This document shows positions 2,476 through 37,303 of a stretch of DNA of 64,000 nucleotides, in pieces. The notes under the pieces are model-generated. The model ran no database searches and was not told the DNA's origin. It saw only the letters and a list, made by a program, of their open reading frames with translations. Position 1 is the first letter of the stretch; each line of letters starts with the position of its first letter. Made by a program: the position numbers and the translations under genes. The DNA comes from Escherichia phage PJNS034. Where the stretch lies: the sequence record PP391266.1; one strand, written 5' to 3'.

Positions 2476-4161
2476 TTGGCAAATATTTGGACAACTCCGC
2501 TCGCTTTGGAAGCGAAGATAGCAAACATTATCTCCAATCAAGGGAAACATGGTGTTAACTTCAACAAGGCCAAAGCAGCGTTCGGTGTGTTTGTTCTTGC
2601 AGAGAAGATTATAAACATCGACAAAGAGCTTGTCCCTATGCTTCCCATGATGATGCACGTGGGCACTGAATATAAGGCTCCATTCAAAGCGAATGGCGAC
2701 TTTAAGGTGTTTGTGCAGAAATATGCGGATAAGGTAGGGTTAAGTCGTTGCGATGTTGGTGGGCCGTTTACAGCGGTTCATTTCACACCATTTGACCCTT
2801 CCAAGACTGACCGCATGAAGCACGTCATGGCTGACGCTGGATGGGTTCCGGCAGTTTGGAATATCAAGAAGAATCCGATTCAAGAGTTGGATGGTCTTGG
2901 TTATATAGAGCGTCAGAATGCGGAAGCATTGCTTCTTGATAAGTATATCGAGAAGAACATCTTAGGTCATGGTGCTGCATGGACTGAGTTGATGTTGAAA
3001 GAGCTTAAATTCCGTGGACAGCGGAAGATTAGTAAGCTCAAAGAACACATCAGAAAGGCTCGTTATTGGCCTACTTCACCGAAGATTACACCAGATGAAG
3101 ACAAGTTCGTTGGTGATTCAAGAATCGGTGAATTAATTCAATCTCGTATGGTATGGTCACATCGTCGGTCATTACTTGAAGGATTGATTAAACTTGTCAG
3201 ACCAGATGGGAAGATTAGCGCTGATGCAAACAGTTGTGCAACACCCACTGCTCGTATGCGGCATCGTGGTGTGGTCAACATTCCTGCCGCTCGTGCTCCT
3301 TTTGGTTATTGGTGCCGAAGTCTTTTCATGGGAGACTATGACAAGACGGTTAAGAAAGGTTCTGTGTTCTATCCGTTTGGTAAGGAATTGCCAGAAGGAT
3401 TAAGACGTAAACCGGGCACAAACATTGTCGAGGAATACGACAAGAAGAAAGATAAATGGAAACACGCTGGTAAATATCGGAAGTTTGTTCCAGCGGGTCA
3501 ACATATCTTTGTTGGTTATGATGGTGCAGGTCTTGAACTTCGTATGTTGGCTCACTATGTTGGTGATGAAAACTTTACGAACCAGATTCTTCACGGTGAT
3601 ATTCATAGCCACAACCAGTCACTTGCTGGTCTTCCAACTCGTGATAACGCAAAGACGTTTATCTACGCATTCCTGTATGGTGCAGGTGATGCGAAAATCG
3701 GTTCTATCATCGGTGGTACTGCTGATGATGGTGCAGAAATCAAAGCTCGATTCATGAAATCACTTCCGAAACTTGCAGCACTGATTGAGCGTGTTCAACA
3801 GATTGCAGGAACTGATGGTTATGTCGAAGCGATTGATGGTCGTCGTTTGTATCTTCGTAAAGGTACGAATGGTAAGTATCAGACTCACAAAGCATTGAAC
3901 GTCTTGTTACAAGGTGCAGGTGCAATTGTCATGAAGTATGCGATGGCTTGGTTGGATTCTCAGATTAAGAAACAAGGTCTGAGGGCTTACAAGGTTATCG
4001 ACATGCACGATGAAGGGCAATTCTCAGTGCATCCTGATGATGTTCCAGCGGTTCGTGAACTGATGGAAAGTTGTGTTAAATGGGCTGGTGAGTTCTTGAA
4101 AATGAACTGTCCACTGGCATCCGATTCAATTGTTGGTCATGACTGGTTTGACACGCATTGA
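2476..4161 (+). CDS. DNA polymerase, family A, polymerase domain only (T7 gp5-like)
   Basis: 561 aa; motif A GYDGAGLELRMLAHY, motif B RDNAKTFIYAFLYGAG, motif C DMHDEGQF, C-terminal HDWFDTH; N-terminus aligns to T7 gp5 after its exonuclease domain; TTG start with AGGAAG RBS. Confidence 0.88.
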   Translation: MANIWTTPLALEAKIANIISNQGKHGVNFNKAKAAFGVFVLAEKIINIDKELVPMLPMMMHVGTEYKAPFKANGDFKVFVQKYADKVGLSRCDVGGPFTAVHFTPFDPSKTDRMKHVMADAGWVPAVWNIKKNPIQELDGLGYIERQNAEALLLDKYIEKNILGHGAAWTELMLKELKFRGQRKISKLKEHIRKARYWPTSPKITPDEDKFVGDSRIGELIQSRMVWSHRRSLLEGLIKLVRPDGKISADANSCATPTARMRHRGVVNIPAARAPFGYWCRSLFMGDYDKTVKKGSVFYPFGKELPEGLRRKPGTNIVEEYDKKKDKWKHAGKYRKFVPAGQHIFVGYDGAGLELRMLAHYVGDENFTNQILHGDIHSHNQSLAGLPTRDNAKTFIYAFLYGAGDAKIGSIIGGTADDGAEIKARFMKSLPKLAALIERVQQIAGTDGYVEAIDGRRLYLRKGTNGKYQTHKALNVLLQGAGAIVMKYAMAWLDSQIKKQGLRAYKVIDMHDEGQFSVHPDDVPAVRELMESCVKWAGEFLKMNCPLASDSIVGHDWFDTH

Positions 4162-4577
4162 TTCACCCTAATCATTTTAAAGGTGCGGCATCTGAAATGA
4201 AGGCTGCTGCACACTTCCTATCGAAAGGTTACGAAGTATTCTTTCCAGCTATCACACAAAGTGCGGCTGACTTCGTTGTAAAAAGTGAAAGGGGTTATGA
4301 AGGTGTTCAAGTCAAATCTGCAACACCTTTGAAGTCTGGTGAGGCGAACTACCTCCAAATACGACTACAAGGGAAACCTACTCCATATGCTACCCACAAC
4401 TATTTAGAAGGTGATTTCGAACATCTGGTAGTGGTTTATGGTGATATGATGTGGGACTTTCCGTGGGAATTAGTCAAAGACAAAACATCAATGACCTTCG
4501 GACGCCTGAATGAAGATGGAACGATATCTACATCAGGGCGAGGTGGTTATAACCCAGAGGATTACAGACTACGATGA
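4158..4577 (+). CDS. PD-(D/E)xK-type nuclease-like protein
   Basis: 139 aa; AAAHFLSKGYEVFFP...ADFVVKS...GVQVKS resembles Hjc/restriction-endonuclease-fold core. Confidence 0.35.
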   Translation: MIHPNHFKGAASEMKAAAHFLSKGYEVFFPAITQSAADFVVKSERGYEGVQVKSATPLKSGEANYLQIRLQGKPTPYATHNYLEGDFEHLVVVYGDMMWDFPWELVKDKTSMTFGRLNEDGTISTSGRGGYNPEDYRLR

Positions 4578-4765
4578 TTCGTGTATACTATATGACTCGT
4601 GACTGTGGCGACGGTACTTCCGTCGTCGATTTCTTCACTGACTTAGCATTTGCTGAGAGCCTTCGTGAAAACGACGAAGAGTTCTTCATGAACGAAAGCA
4701 TTGATTACTTTGATGTTCCTGCTCTCGGTACTATCTCTATCTCAACTCCCAAGGATTATGAATAA
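4574..4765 (+). CDS. hypothetical protein
   Basis: 63 aa ORF, overlapping stop/start. Confidence 0.3.
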   Translation: MIRVYYMTRDCGDGTSVVDFFTDLAFAESLRENDEEFFMNESIDYFDVPALGTISISTPKDYE

Positions 4766-5019
4766 TGTCTCACTTATCTACTCAGAAAACTCTCAAATGG
4801 TCTGTAGCCTATCAGATTGATACTTCTAAAGCTGTGACACACAGCCTCTTCAATACTCGTGAGGAGGCTCGTGAGCATAAGCGTGGTATGCAGAAGCTGT
4901 TAGCTGGTATGCCTAACCAGAAGAATCACAAAGTCTGGCTGGAGCGTCATGAGACTGTGTACGACTTCAAAGATGGCAAACGCCACTTCACTATCACCAA
5001 CGTATCTCGTATTCGCTAA
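4765..5019 (+). CDS. hypothetical protein
   Basis: 84 aa ORF. Confidence 0.3.
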   Translation: MSHLSTQKTLKWSVAYQIDTSKAVTHSLFNTREEAREHKRGMQKLLAGMPNQKNHKVWLERHETVYDFKDGKRHFTITNVSRIR

Positions 5020-5312
5020 TGCAAAAGGAAACTACTGTGACGAACCCTATTAAACTGGAAGACGATGCAATCGCTGTTGTGGCATTCTCTGGCAAAGTTA
5101 TCAAGAAGTCCTTCGAAGACCTTGACCGACTGATTCCTGACGATGCTGTAGTATCTAACGAGCTTGTGGAGTTCATGAGCACTATGTGGGCAATCATCGA
5201 GAAAGGTGTTGAACCAGTGACACCTGAAATGATTGCTGAAATGGAGGCTGAGGAAGGTGAGATTCAGCCAGACGACCGTTCTGCAATTGAGGGAGAACGT
5301 AAAGATGGGTAA
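5019..5312 (+). CDS. hypothetical acidic protein
   Basis: 97 aa; contains in-frame 12-mer at codons 5-8. Confidence 0.35.
   Translation: MQKETTVTNPIKLEDDAIAVVAFSGKVIKKSFEDLDRLIPDDAVVSNELVEFMSTMWAIIEKGVEPVTPEMIAEMEAEEGEIQPDDRSAIEGERKDG
5031..5042 (+). repeat. 12-mer ACTACTGTGACG, copy 2
   Basis: Exact, codons 5-8 of ORF 5019-5312. Confidence 0.9.
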
Positions 5313-5438
5313 ATTCTTCCTGAAACTGGTTAAGATTTTCAACATGATGGTTGATATCTTTGTCCTGTATGTTCTGCTGTTTGGTCATATGTCAGCGAAC
5401 ATCGGTGGTAAACTTTACGAATTTAATGGACTGTTCCT

Positions 5439-5762
5439 ATGATTCTATCTGGCACTGTAAATCTTCAAACTGTTAACACTGAGAAGTTAGTAGAAATTGG
5501 TGAAGCTGTCTGCATCGCTATGGAGCAACGTAAGCAGCTCCTACGCAAGAAGTTCCGAAAGCATGGTAAGGATGCCCTTACTGACTTTGAACTCCGCCTG
5601 ATTGACGAGGCGCACGATTTGGGCACAGACTTCAACGAAGCACTGACTCTTGAATCAAAACGACACGATGAACAACTTGAATCTGACTTCGCTGCTATGA
5701 ACGCTGCTGATAACGTCGGTTCAGAAACATTAAAACTGTTAGACATTCCAGCAGAACGATGA
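5439..5762 (+). CDS. hypothetical protein
   Basis: 107 aa ORF. Confidence 0.35.
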   Translation: MILSGTVNLQTVNTEKLVEIGEAVCIAMEQRKQLLRKKFRKHGKDALTDFELRLIDEAHDLGTDFNEALTLESKRHDEQLESDFAAMNAADNVGSETLKLLDIPAER

Positions 5763-5805
5763 TACTCTAGGGCTTCCCGTTAGGGGAGAGTAAGAAATAA
5801 TATAA

Positions 5806-5831
5806 GGAATATTAGTAAGATATAATATTCC
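5806..5831 (+). promoter_or_regulatory. perfect 9-bp palindrome GGAATATTA-N8-TAATATTCC containing TATAAT
   Basis: Hairpin/operator-like element 25 nt upstream of ORF 5856 and the tRNA cluster; shares GGAATATTAsTAAGA with element at 47265. Confidence 0.4.
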
Positions 5832-5855
5832 TTAATATTACTCCTGAGGTGACTC

Positions 5856-6050
5856 ATGCTTGACTCAAAATGTTCACTATGCGGTTGCACTGGTATTCAT
5901 GCCTGTATGGGCAAGCCTTTAAGTGATGGTGTTATCTATTCAACTTACGGTAACACCGAAGTTAGAAAGTTAGCCGCGAAAGAGATTCAAGAAATCCAAG
6001 AATTATTGGAAAAGATTGTTGACACACAACCCAATAACTTGGTATCTTAA
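5856..6050 (+). CDS. hypothetical Cys-rich small protein
   Basis: 64 aa; RBS TGAGGTGA; CSLCGC...HAC. Confidence 0.35.
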   Translation: MLDSKCSLCGCTGIHACMGKPLSDGVIYSTYGNTEVRKLAAKEIQEIQELLEKIVDTQPNNLVS

Positions 6051-34929: not shown

Positions 34930-35193
34930 TTAGATTTCATCCCACCAGTTTACACCCATCTCACTAAAAGGTACACCCGACATTGAGGGATTGTTGACGT
35001 ACTGTTTGTACGCTTTCAAAGCTCGCTTACGCCATTTCAGTTTGTAACCGTAACGTTGCAAGTTGTCTGCTGCATTACTCTCATCCAGTGAGAATGCGAT
35101 GATTGCTTTCACTTGGTTAAGGATATGAGGTGATGCCCAGAATTTCTGAGCTTCGGGAGTTTCAATTGGAAAGTTGAGAATGGTCTTTGCCAT
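34930..35193 (-). CDS. hypothetical protein
   Basis: 87 aa ORF. Confidence 0.35.
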   Translation of the reverse strand: MAKTILNFPIETPEAQKFWASPHILNQVKAIIAFSLDESNAADNLQRYGYKLKWRKRALKAYKQYVNNPSMSGVPFSEMGVNWWDEI

Positions 35194-35208: not shown

Positions 35209-35247
35209 GAAAAAAGGGAGGCGGAGAGATTAACCCTCCAACCTCCC
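35209..35247 (-). terminator. rho-independent terminator (minus strand)
   Basis: On minus strand GGGAGG...CCTCCC hairpin followed by TTTTTT. Confidence 0.55.
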
Positions 35248-35295: not shown

Positions 35296-35511
35296 TTAGT
35301 GTGAAACCACACACTTACTTGACTCTACCGACCCATGCAGAGGTGCGGAGGCTACGAAATGAACCGTACCTACGCGGTTGTCGATAAGAGTATCCTGTAG
35401 TGTCTCTAATGACTCGTCTCGAATAAGACTCCCATCAAGGAACCACTGGAAAGTAGAACGCTTATCTACTACTCCTGTTAGCTGCCAGTTCTCCCCTTCC
35501 GTTGCTTTCAA
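35296..35511 (-). CDS. hypothetical protein
   Basis: 71 aa ORF. Confidence 0.3.
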   Translation of the reverse strand: MKATEGENWQLTGVVDKRSTFQWFLDGSLIRDESLETLQDTLIDNRVGTVHFVASAPLHGSVESSKCVVSH

Positions 35512-35531
35512 CGTTGGAGGAAGGTCGGTTA

Positions 35532-35993
35532 CTACATTACCGCTTCAAGGTCTTCCGCAGGGATTACATTCACTCGGCTACCACCAGTAGGGCCGGTAGT
35601 CCACTCGCTACCATCAACGGTAACTTTAAAACCAATACGACCACCGCCACCCGCTGTAACACCAGTTAGGTCACAAGACTTACCATCAGCAGATTGTTTG
35701 AAAGTGAAGCTTCCTTCTTGCCCAGAGTCATAAGTAGCGAACCACTCATACACAGCAGAATCAGGAAGAGTACCACCAGAAATAACCACTTTGTCAGTTT
35801 TAGTCTCACCTACTTTGAGGTCTTGACCAATACCATCAGTATCAATTGAAATGTCTAACACTTCAACTTCGATTGAATCTTTCTTAGTTGCATCACTCAC
35901 AGACTCTACAGTAATAGTGCTGGTGCCCTTATCGACACCAGTCACTTCAAGAGCCTGAGTAGCGAGAGCAGCTTTAGCTTGACGCTTCGCCAT
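35532..35993 (-). CDS. bacterial Ig-like (Big_2-type) domain protein, probable capsid decoration or fiber
   Basis: 153 aa; own RBS GAGGAA; beta-rich TITVESVSD...KVTVDGSEW pattern. Confidence 0.45.
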   Translation of the reverse strand: MAKRQAKAALATQALEVTGVDKGTSTITVESVSDATKKDSIEVEVLDISIDTDGIGQDLKVGETKTDKVVISGGTLPDSAVYEWFATYDSGQEGSFTFKQSADGKSCDLTGVTAGGGGRIGFKVTVDGSEWTTGPTGGSRVNVIPAEDLEAVM

Positions 35994-36005
35994 TCACGAT
36001 TCCTC

Positions 36006-37303
36006 TTATGCTACAGTTGCAGCAGCAGGGTCGCTAGAGGTTGCTTTAATTTCCTGAGGAGCACCATCTGGAGAGACAGTTACTGACAGAGGAAGTTTAG
36101 CACCCTTCTTAACGTACCGCTTTTTTGCACCGGCTATTGCCACACTTTCTACGGCTGGTTGTTCGTCGTTGACTACCACAGTTGCTGCATTGGTAGGAGT
36201 AGTACCAACTTTGTTAGTAAACTCGGCTACATACGAACCTGCATCTTCTTTCTGAGCATTAGCTTTGGTGAAAGATGGAGAGGTTGCACCTTCGATTGCA
36301 GCCCCATCCTTTTTCCACTGCACGGAGTCAAAGTTCTCCGCAGCAGCAGTTAAGGTAAAACTACCGCCAACAACGACGGTAGCATTACTTGGATGGGTTA
36401 GGATTTTGGGGCAGTATCTCCACCCGCTTTAGCAGTAATCATAGCCGCTGCTTTAGGGTTGTTCAGACGCAGACCAACTTCCTGCTCAATCATGAACTTC
36501 TCAGCAGAACCAGATTTCGCCAGAGCTACTTTCTTAGGAGCACGCAGTACAGCCATACCGAGGTCAGATGGGTTGAAGATGTAGATAACATCTTTCGGCA
36601 TCCAACGGTTAGGAATGCACTTCAGTTCCTGGCCCAGCGGGTCAACGATGTACTCAACCTGCTTAACAAAGCGTTTGTCGTTCTCGAAGATACGCATACG
36701 AGTACCAGACTTCTCTTGCAGTGAAGCGAAGAAGTCAGCTTTGCTTGGGTGGTACATGATGATGCTTGGGTCAGCACCTTCGGTGTACAGCAGAGCAGTA
36801 GTTTCGAACAGCAGTTCTTCTTTCAGCTCGCCAGTTTTCTTCATGGTTGCATCAATCATCGTACCGAAAGAAGCAGTCAGACGAGCAGTACCAGCAGCAC
36901 CCGGAGTTGCTTTCTGGTCAGCCAACAGGAAGATACCTTCGTTGTCACGCTTCAGCTCTTTAGCAGCTTTCTTCAGTTGATAGAACAGCTCTTTCTCACG
37001 ACCATGAGAACTAACGGCGTTAGCAGAGTCAGATACGAACACAACTTTACGCATAATCTGAGTGTAGTTCTGAACCACAGTGGTTGGGGTCAGGTCTACG
37101 TCTTCAGCATCAGATGCTTCAGCGAATGCGTTGCCGGTGTTGATATCACTCAGCTTATCCCACTGCCACTGGAACATAGTGTTGTGAACAGGGAATTTGC
37201 GAATCATGGAAATCAGCGGAGTGTATTCAGGAGAGATGTTGCTGACCCAATCAGCAAAGTCTTCCTTGATGCCAGCCATCTTGTAAGTCTGGTAAGTTGC
37301 CAT
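36006..37303 (-). CDS. major capsid protein, long form (MCP-Ig fusion via -1 frameshift)
   Basis: -1 frame is open across the MCP stop and encodes a complete Ig-like domain; slippery CCCAAAA sits two codons before the stop. Confidence 0.5.
36398..37303 (-). CDS. major capsid protein (short form)
   Basis: 301 aa; between scaffold and Ig-extension, size and position typical of T7-supergroup MCP. Confidence 0.65.
36404..36410 (-). other. -1 programmed ribosomal frameshift slippery heptamer C_CCA_AAA
   Basis: X_XXY_YYZ heptamer in zero frame (gcC CCA AAA tcc TAA); -1 frame continues as [16 protein letters not shown]... Confidence 0.5.

Follow-up and report, generated by a model that had tools for sequence, protein, structure and literature searches.

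Anatomy of the capsid gene end in phage PJNS034

Does the major capsid protein (MCP) gene of Escherichia phage PJNS034 give rise to one product or to two? The question is raised by the 3′ end of this gene in a 64,000-nt stretch of sequence record PP391266.1 (hereafter the window, i.e. that whole stretch at its full length), where an open reading frame (ORF) encoding an immunoglobulin (Ig)-like domain runs in the −1 frame past the capsid stop codon. From the features described below, it is very probable that the gene makes a second, longer capsid protein carrying the Ig domain by means of a programmed −1 slip at its last codons. The anatomy of the locus, its conservation and the purifying selection acting on it were computed here, while the production of the long isoform and its presence in virions are taken from the literature on homologous phages.

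To begin with the capsid gene itself, all genes of the capsid region were located on the minus strand (Table 1). The MCP, which is identical to WWV91989.1 of PJNS034, was assigned to the SU10_MCP family PF17236 (E-value of 4.6e-69 and 233.6 bits vs. a Pfam cutoff of 24.1) and matched the solved SU10 major head protein 7z45 with an E-value of 4.7e-72; moreover, SU10-type portal and adaptor genes appeared beside the capsid gene in its relatives. On the coding strand, the gene ends with GAT ACT GCC CCA AAA TCC TAA, a sequence that contains the slippery heptamer C_CCA_AAA, whose register matches the frame of the MCP and which lies inside the overlap between the two ORFs. In the −1 frame, a TAA at 36431..36429 precedes an open stretch that begins at 36428, continues across the MCP stop and extends as far as the TAA at 36008..36006, while the +1 frame closes 5 codons beyond the MCP stop, within an ORF of 17 codons. 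Across the window ORFs of at least 150 aa, in-frame heptamers of the X_XXY_YYZ form occurred at a background rate of 0.0013 per codon, and the expectation of finding one by chance in the 9-codon overlap was about 1%. A preliminary description of this DNA had placed the heptamer two codons before the MCP stop (zero frame gcC CCA AAA tcc TAA) and had reported that the −1 frame stays open past it and encodes an Ig-like domain of about 130 residues. Sequence and coordinates agreed with the former statement, and the extension turned out to be 132 aa long, with AAATVA as its last residues and with scores above the Pfam gathering cutoffs for Ig_2, I-set and ig. The slippery heptamer at the capsid end and the Ig ORF in the −1 frame are confirmed.

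The extension could be aligned, from its residues 1-3 onwards, with each Ig repeat of two solved phage chains, 9ncf_S (E-value of 5e-37) and 9c2d_S (9e-33), whose names in the PDB are ‘Immunoglobulin-like domain protein’ and ‘tail protein’, respectively. Furthermore, AlphaFold2 (AF2) gave a predicted local distance difference test (pLDDT) score of 80-92 over residues 6-79 of the extension. This Ig module is common to both solved chains and to Hoc-like PHROGs. Promiscuous Ig-like domains are found C-terminally on phage structural proteins, to which they are joined via in-frame fusion or frameshift (Fraser et al. 2006, as cited in PMC9965538 and PMC5009743), and the capsid Ig domain of PJNS034 does not differ from them in principle, being a further instance. 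When the extension was compared with those of the relatives in the −1 frame, the dN/dS ratios, where estimable, ranged from 0.06 to 0.35, similar to the values for the MCP, which indicates that the extension is under purifying selection in this frame.

The −1 frame has no ATG, GTG or TTG before position 36323, where a GTG corresponds to residue 28 after the slip and leaves 27 residues of the Ig domain upstream. It is this first canonical start that the listing of the Ig ORF reflects, which, as the preliminary description had pointed out, gives it only as a GTG-initiated ORF at 36006-36323. At the same position, most relatives have GTT, CAA or GTC instead. The N-terminal part of the −1 ORF has no start of its own and yet is conserved as protein. 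The register of the heptamer, the short overlap, the missing N-terminal start and the conservation among relatives all agree with the programmed −1 shift that had been read from this locus.

According to the proposed mechanism, most ribosomes in this phiEco32-related podophage would end at the TAA and yield the 33.6-kDa MCP, while a minority would slip by −1 on C_CCA_AAA, with tRNA-Pro in the P site re-pairing with CCC instead of CCA and tRNA-Lys in the A site pairing again with AAA. The slipped ribosomes would then continue with ATC CTA ACC and so forth, giving a 432-aa (46.8 kDa) minor capsid protein that would bear at its C-terminus the Ig-like domain and, after it, half a Big_2 domain, displayed on the head surface. 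It may serve in adhesion at the surface or in decoration, the roles that have been proposed for Ig domains of phages.

Table 1. Features of the PJNS034 capsid region in window coordinates, slip sites of the related contigs, and annotated counterparts of the extension
Feature	Location	Strand	Description	Basis
Major capsid protein gene	36398..37303	−	301 aa, 33.6 kDa, zero-frame product	Pfam, 7z45 match
Slippery heptamer C_CCA_AAA	36410..36404	−	X_XXY_YYZ register with the MCP zero frame; AAA two codons before the stop	
Overlap of zero and −1 frames, both open	36401..36428	−	9 codons	
−1 frame extension	36009..36404	−	132 codons, stop 36006..36008; predicted fusion of 432 aa, 46.8 kDa	
Ig-like domain (I-set/Ig_2 type)	36165..36404	−	Extension residues 1-80	Pfam, PDB, AF2
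Stable hairpin	36355..36388	−	Starts 15 nt after the heptamer; dG −18.4 kcal/mol, z −4.6	
A_AAA_AAG heptamer	36126..36120	−	Read in frame within the extension (AGAKKRY); after a −1 slip, 3 codons (AVR) would precede the stop	
N-terminal half of Big_2	36009..36152	−	Last ~48 residues of the extension	
Shine-Dalgarno of ORF2	36000..36007	−	AAGAGGAA	Sequence
ORF2	35532..35993	−	153 aa, 15.8 kDa; C-terminal half of Big_2 at residues ~15-48, then an Ig-like sandwich	
C-terminal half of Big_2	35850..35993	−	Start of ORF2	
Third Ig-like ORF	35296..35544	−	−1 frame of ORF2; counterparts L001 4113..4397 and L008 5272..5538	
Terminator-like hairpin ending the capsid block	35222..35240	−		Terminator prediction
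Slip site, L003/L004			C_CCA_AAG tcg TAA	
Slip site, L008			C_CCA_AAG TAA	
Slip site, L010 and L011			G_GGA_AAG TAA	
Slip site, L007			T_TTA_AAG TAA	
Slip site, L002 and L005			G_GTA_AAG TAA	
Slip site, L013			C_GTA_AAG TAA	
Slip site, KSP100			A_GTA_AAG tcg TAA	
Slip site, L012			G_ACA_AAG TAA	
KSP100 orf5	L001 3313..3693		Extension annotated ‘major tail subunit’; start inside the Ig domain	
TacPo2_70	L002 4051..4407		Extension annotated ‘hypothetical protein’; start inside the Ig domain	
EcoN5 gp005	L014 3391..3903		Extension annotated ‘Ig domain containing protein’	

Frame relation and slip motif among relatives

A total of 11 related contigs were compared, representing 10 distinct genomes, as L003 and L004 have the same capsid protein and slip site; together with the window, the set comprised 11 distinct genomes. 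The closest annotated records were those of Pantoea phage TacPo2 and Serratia phage KSP100, the latter sharing 80.8% nucleotide identity across the entire region; nine more contigs from public assemblies, with capsid proteins 83-98% identical, were added to them. These relatives were obtained through protein search and contig look-ups, while a scan of viral contigs with the MCP alone returned no close relative.

The Ig ORF was found at −1 relative to the capsid gene in all 11 related contigs, with the +1 frame closed in every one of them and an overlap of 3-17 codons. Moreover, the final or penultimate sense codon of the capsid gene was AAG preceded by an A (NNA_AAG), again in 11 out of 11, and this AAG was kept while the P-site codon changed (CCA, GTA, TTA, GGA or ACA). 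A bare A_AAG tetramer (GTA_AAG or ACA_AAG) was all that was present in 6 of the 11 distinct genomes, and the Lys codon adjoined the TAA directly in 8 of them, the window being the sole member of the set with AAA in the A site. The peptide following the junction was conserved as K-[VI][VTLI][TASRI][HQ]P, and the predicted trypsin cleavage in PJNS034 falls exactly between the K and the I of the slip junction. Furthermore, the extension ORF was intact in 11 of the 12 contigs, the exception being L004, with one extra A in a homopolymer run. Both the shift motif and the frame relation are kept among the relatives. As regards slippage rules in E. coli, the top heptamers include C_CCA_AAG and G_GGA_AAG, the efficient class is made up of V_VVA_AAR and U_UUA_AAG, and no other tetramer comes close to A_AAG, while C_CCA_AAA falls within the efficient V_VVA_AAR class and is weaker than the AAG form (PMC4066793).

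Beyond this set, a capsid gene with 65% identity (L096) showed A_GTA_AAG two codons before the stop, followed by a different −1 ORF of 78 aa, and in-frame C-terminal fusions of the capsid protein with Ig or Big_2 domains were present in more distant members of the family (P0023, P0026, P0030, P0040 and P0075). As a negative control, 79 loci from IMG/VR with distant SU10-type capsid genes (31-45% identity) were considered, of which only three had a heptamer in the overlap together with a long −1 ORF. In these three loci, the heptamer was GGGAAAG, the −1 ORF had ~175 aa and the peptide after the slip resembled the one in Kuravirus EcoN5. Duplicated capsid genes were observed as well: at least four tandem SU10-type paralogues (298, 295, 293 and 294 aa) were found in L095 at 2501..5897 (ENA ERZ4740328 NODE_200), and a 46-kb contig with P0021, P0022 and P0024 also has, according to the search table, the paralogue P0023 (400 aa, with an in-frame Big_2).

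Comparison with known capsid frameshifts

The event in PJNS034 is a further instance of the documented phiEco32-type capsid frameshift, real but not new. In phage YF01, a GGGAAAG near the capsid stop leads to isoforms of 353 aa and 892 aa with Ig-like domains (PMC9965538), and potential ribosomal slippage at GGGAAAG, like that of phage phiEco32, was described for SU10 (PMC4281155). Privateer presented two capsid bands on sodium dodecyl sulfate-polyacrylamide gel electrophoresis, with the minor capsid protein detected by mass spectrometry of virions, and the same paper states that the frameshifted product was seen in phiEco32 and SU10 (PMC7881722). In Kuravirus EcoN5, the capsid gene ends with gcG GGA AAG gtg gcg gcg TAA, where G_GGA_AAG stands three sense codons before the stop, and the −1 ORF has 200 codons, ~175 of them beyond the stop, containing a complete Big_2 and given as a separate gene in RefSeq. 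PJNS034 shares with the prolate podophages phiEco32, SU10, YF01, Privateer and EcoN5 a homologous capsid (PF17236) and a −1 slip on a Lys-codon heptamer in the last codons, as well as the Ig-like or Big_2 extension that often appears as a separate ‘Ig domain protein’ in the annotation of phiEco32-type phages. In addition, the relatives L010 and L011 use G_GGA_AAG, identical to the phiEco32-type slip site.

Several differences from the Kuravirus group were also found. The best-matching annotated capsids of that group are about 44-46% identical to the MCP of PJNS034, and the heptamer is C_CCA_AAA rather than the GGGAAAG of phiEco32-type phages. The extension consists of an I-set-type Ig domain and a truncated Big_2, in contrast to the complete Big_2 modules ending at a terminator of the Kuravirus type, and, again unlike the latter, the next and separately initiated gene completes the Big_2 and has a −1 extension of its own. 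The clade of KSP100, TacPo2 and PJNS034 had not previously been annotated or described with a frameshift.

The precedent named in the preliminary description, T7 10A/10B, holds as an analogy, although phiEco32, SU10, YF01 and Privateer are closer to PJNS034, with homologous capsids. In T7 10A/10B and in gene 10 of T3, as proposed here, a −1 shift late in the major capsid gene leads to a longer minor capsid protein, the extension being Ig-like in T3 and not Ig-like in T7 (PMC5009743). The slip sequence of PJNS034 differs from that of T7 gene 10, and the T7-type capsid family was not detected in the MCP by Pfam at E ≤ 1, where SU10_MCP and a sub-threshold DUF6579 were the only matches; the system works like 10A/10B and is not a member of it. 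A −1 shift at the capsid 3′ end also adds an Ig-like extension in Lactobacillus phage A2 (gp5A/gp5B) and in Listeria phages A118 and A500, and a review covers Ig extensions that arise by frameshifting on capsid and tail proteins in T3, A2 and Listeria phages (PMC5009743). Unlike PJNS034, A2, A118 and A500 are siphophages of Gram-positive hosts, and similarity of the MCP to their capsid proteins was not seen, no search aimed at it having been made. The heptamer of phage A2 is likewise C_CCA_AAA.

Stimulatory elements and alternative explanations

Stimulators of frameshifting, such as a 3′ hairpin or pseudoknot ~5-9 nt downstream or a Shine-Dalgarno (SD)-like element ~10-14 nt upstream, are common but not obligatory. 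Of the downstream stem-loop or pseudoknot that the preliminary description had suggested looking for, none was found at the canonical spacing; the one strong hairpin (z of −4.6) is located 15 nt away and has no structure common to the relatives. This hairpin was flagged as terminator-like, with the U-rich tract UUUUACCUU directly after it. The relatives have hairpins at the same place, of other sequence and with the register shifted by one, showing no double compensatory changes, and RNAalifold found no shared stimulatory structure in the 11 aligned junctions. The hairpin may be a distant frameshift stimulator, a weak terminator or an mRNA element; as a partial terminator, it may raise the level of capsid mRNA over that of the downstream genes instead of acting as a stimulator. 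Upstream of the heptamer, a GGAG at 7 nt was found in the PJNS034 window only. An SD-like stimulator on this side was considered and discarded, as GGN-rich glycine linker codons mimic an SD in some genomes, with none in the closest relatives and a spacing unlike that of dnaX.

Some of the observations weigh against a programmed slip in PJNS034. The long protein of this phage is a prediction from sequence. The A-site codon is AAA, compared to AAG in every relative, and the efficiency may be low. The strong hairpin lies off the canonical spacing (15 vs. the usual 5-9 nt), shares no register with the relatives and has the look of a weak terminator, and Rfam gave no match. Moreover, a GGAG 12 nt upstream of GTG 36323 makes weak independent initiation of a truncated fragment possible. 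Finally, the long isoform of SU10 was lost and is missing from the capsid reconstruction (PMC9965538), which makes the feature dispensable in at least one relative. Because the A-site AAA is weaker than the AAG of the relatives and a stimulator at canonical spacing is lacking, the efficiency of the shift is probably a few percent or less, and lower than in the relatives.

If the Ig ORF were translated only from its own start, at GTG 36323 or a non-canonical codon, the product would be a free small protein, as it is annotated. The 105-aa ORF with a GTG start in both the ORF listing and GenBank favours this explanation, as does the GGAG preceding that codon, and even so it seems improbable. Starting at GTG 36323 drops the first 27 residues (strands A-B), while the homology of the domain begins at the slip site, and this GTG is missing in most relatives. 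Gene callers choose a different start in each genome and truncate the domain every time. The constant −1 frame and the A_AAG motif within the overlap of 3-17 codons would, moreover, be left unexplained. There is very little probability that the −1 ORF is instead an untranslated remnant of a capsid extension that was once in frame and was disrupted by a frameshift mutation, given that 11 of the 12 contigs have an unbroken ORF on which purifying selection acts and that the slip motif was kept or re-created with differing P-site codons; what speaks for such a history are the in-frame fusions of distant relatives, the loss of the extension in SU10 and the third Ig ORF of the same window, with its slip motif seemingly lost.

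A real shift might also proceed in another way, namely as a single-tRNA (Lys) slip aided by the nearby stop (‘shifty stop’) or as slippage of the RNA polymerase. It is highly doubtful that either applies in place of a tandem slip, since the PJNS034 window has a full heptamer and a Ser codon between the AAA and the stop, and slippage during transcription requires a run far longer than 4 A. On the other hand, A_AAG is the top tetramer in E. coli (PMC4066793), and single-tRNA slippage helped by slow termination is plausible because the tetramer alone is present in 6 of the 11 distinct genomes and the Lys codon abuts the TAA in 8 of the 11; the protein would be identical to that produced by the tandem slip.

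Split Big_2 domain and downstream junctions

Past the frameshift extension, a separate Big_2 gene with its own ribosome-binding site had been proposed at 35532-35993. An SD and an ATG of its own were indeed found for this gene (ORF2), but the Big_2 domain was found to be split across two ORFs. In particular, the Big_2 profile was matched only by the concatenation of the extension and ORF2 (25.4 bits vs. a Pfam cutoff of 22.8, positions 2-68 of 79), while no Big_2 match was obtained at E ≤ 1 with ORF2 alone or the extension alone. The BLASTP alignment to the complete Big_2 domains of the L011 extension crossed the junction between extension and ORF2 uninterrupted. When the extension was modelled alone with AF2, the half-Big_2 had a pLDDT of <50, and the model of ORF2 showed a confident Ig-like sandwich with a loose N-terminus. 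Homologues of ORF2 were rare, with 12 matches among 1.84 billion representatives, and every short one that includes the N-terminus begins with the half-domain. A homologue search with the concatenation of extension and ORF2 gave one irrelevant match, despite the presence of close homologues in the collection.

The split point of Big_2 was the same in nearly all relatives, and the SD and ATG of ORF2 were conserved. The frame relation between extension and ORF2, however, varied (frame 0 with two stops, +1, an overlapping TAATG or a terminator-like hairpin between them), and therefore points to separate initiation of ORF2, not read-through. Read-through or hopping over the interval from TAA to TGA was likewise rejected, given frames 0, +1 and +2 among relatives, the hairpin that intervenes in L010 and L012, and the conserved SD and ATG. 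The junction in TacPo2 (‘gtc TAATG gct aaa gtg’) resembles a V-N-G-K-V turn broken by small indels. L011 retains the terminal half-Big_2 without an adjacent partner, and an ORF2-like partner was not found on the 18.5-kb L011/L097 contig, which is an incomplete genome.

Slip motifs were also present at the end of ORF2 in KSP100 and L005 (G_GTA_AAA TAG), in L007 and L008 (G_GTA_AAG ncg TAA) and in L013 (G_GAA_AAG). The window has GTA ATG TAG at this point, with the third Ig ORF intact, and the second slip motif appears to have been lost in PJNS034. The ORF2 junction GTA AAG TCG TAA CC seen among relatives is nearly identical to the capsid junction of KSP100, a resemblance that suggests a reusable ‘slip site + Ig’ cassette.

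Seven of the 11 distinct genomes carry the A_AAA_AAG heptamer within the extension, at one or the other of two Lys-Lys positions, and no consistent stimulator was found among them. Its arrangement is like that of E. coli dnaX (tau/gamma), where an in-frame A_AAA_AAG with a −1 stop a few codons on leads to a truncated second product; it is unlike dnaX in having no consistent upstream SD-like element or 3′ hairpin. A slip at this site would remove the half-Big_2 stub, and the motif may be fortuitous. In L004, seven A instead of six were found at this heptamer, which breaks the frame and could be due to an assembly error or a hot spot.

Taken together, the capsid block of PJNS034, KSP100 and TacPo2 might constitute a multi-step recoding cascade around a split Ig domain, including docking, a second slip and a stub-less form, although this is an unlikely arrangement on present evidence. 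The frameshifted MCP-Ig would end in the first four strands of Big_2, and the ORF2 protein would bring the remaining strands and dock by fold complementation, so that the decoration protein would attach to frameshifted capsid subunits only. The ORF2 protein would gain more Ig domains by its own −1 slip, the motif for which seems lost in PJNS034, and the internal A_AAA_AAG could yield a stub-less MCP-Ig unable to recruit the ORF2 protein.

The terminator-like hairpin that ends the capsid block in the window has similar counterparts in KSP100 and TacPo2, where a G+C-rich inverted repeat followed by a T run was found after the Ig block. Past this terminator lies an ORF of 87 aa (34930..35193, minus strand), which matched only the N-terminal 91 of 418 positions of phrog_20917 (function unassigned) with an E-value of 5e-42. 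Its homologue has ~364 aa in TacPo2 and L005, the gene in the window being a short version or truncated.

Annotation and significance

Three proteins of the region are identical to entries of the PJNS034 record, where the MCP is annotated as ‘capsid and scaffold’ and the two ORFs of the Ig region as separate hypothetical proteins. The Ig ORF of PJNS034, KSP100 and TacPo2 would be better annotated as a ribosomal-slippage join to the capsid gene. With PJNS034, the documented capsid recoding is extended from Kuraviruses to a sister clade. Moreover, the range of motifs found (C_CCA_AAR, G_GGA_AAG, T_TTA_AAG and a bare A_AAG by the stop) closely fits the slippage rules of E. coli and may represent a natural efficiency series. 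Should the split Big_2 and the chained −1 junctions prove functional, they would offer a new means of attaching decoration proteins with controlled stoichiometry. Ig domains on the surface are important for the adhesion of phages to mucus or cells, and hence for therapeutic and biocontrol phages.

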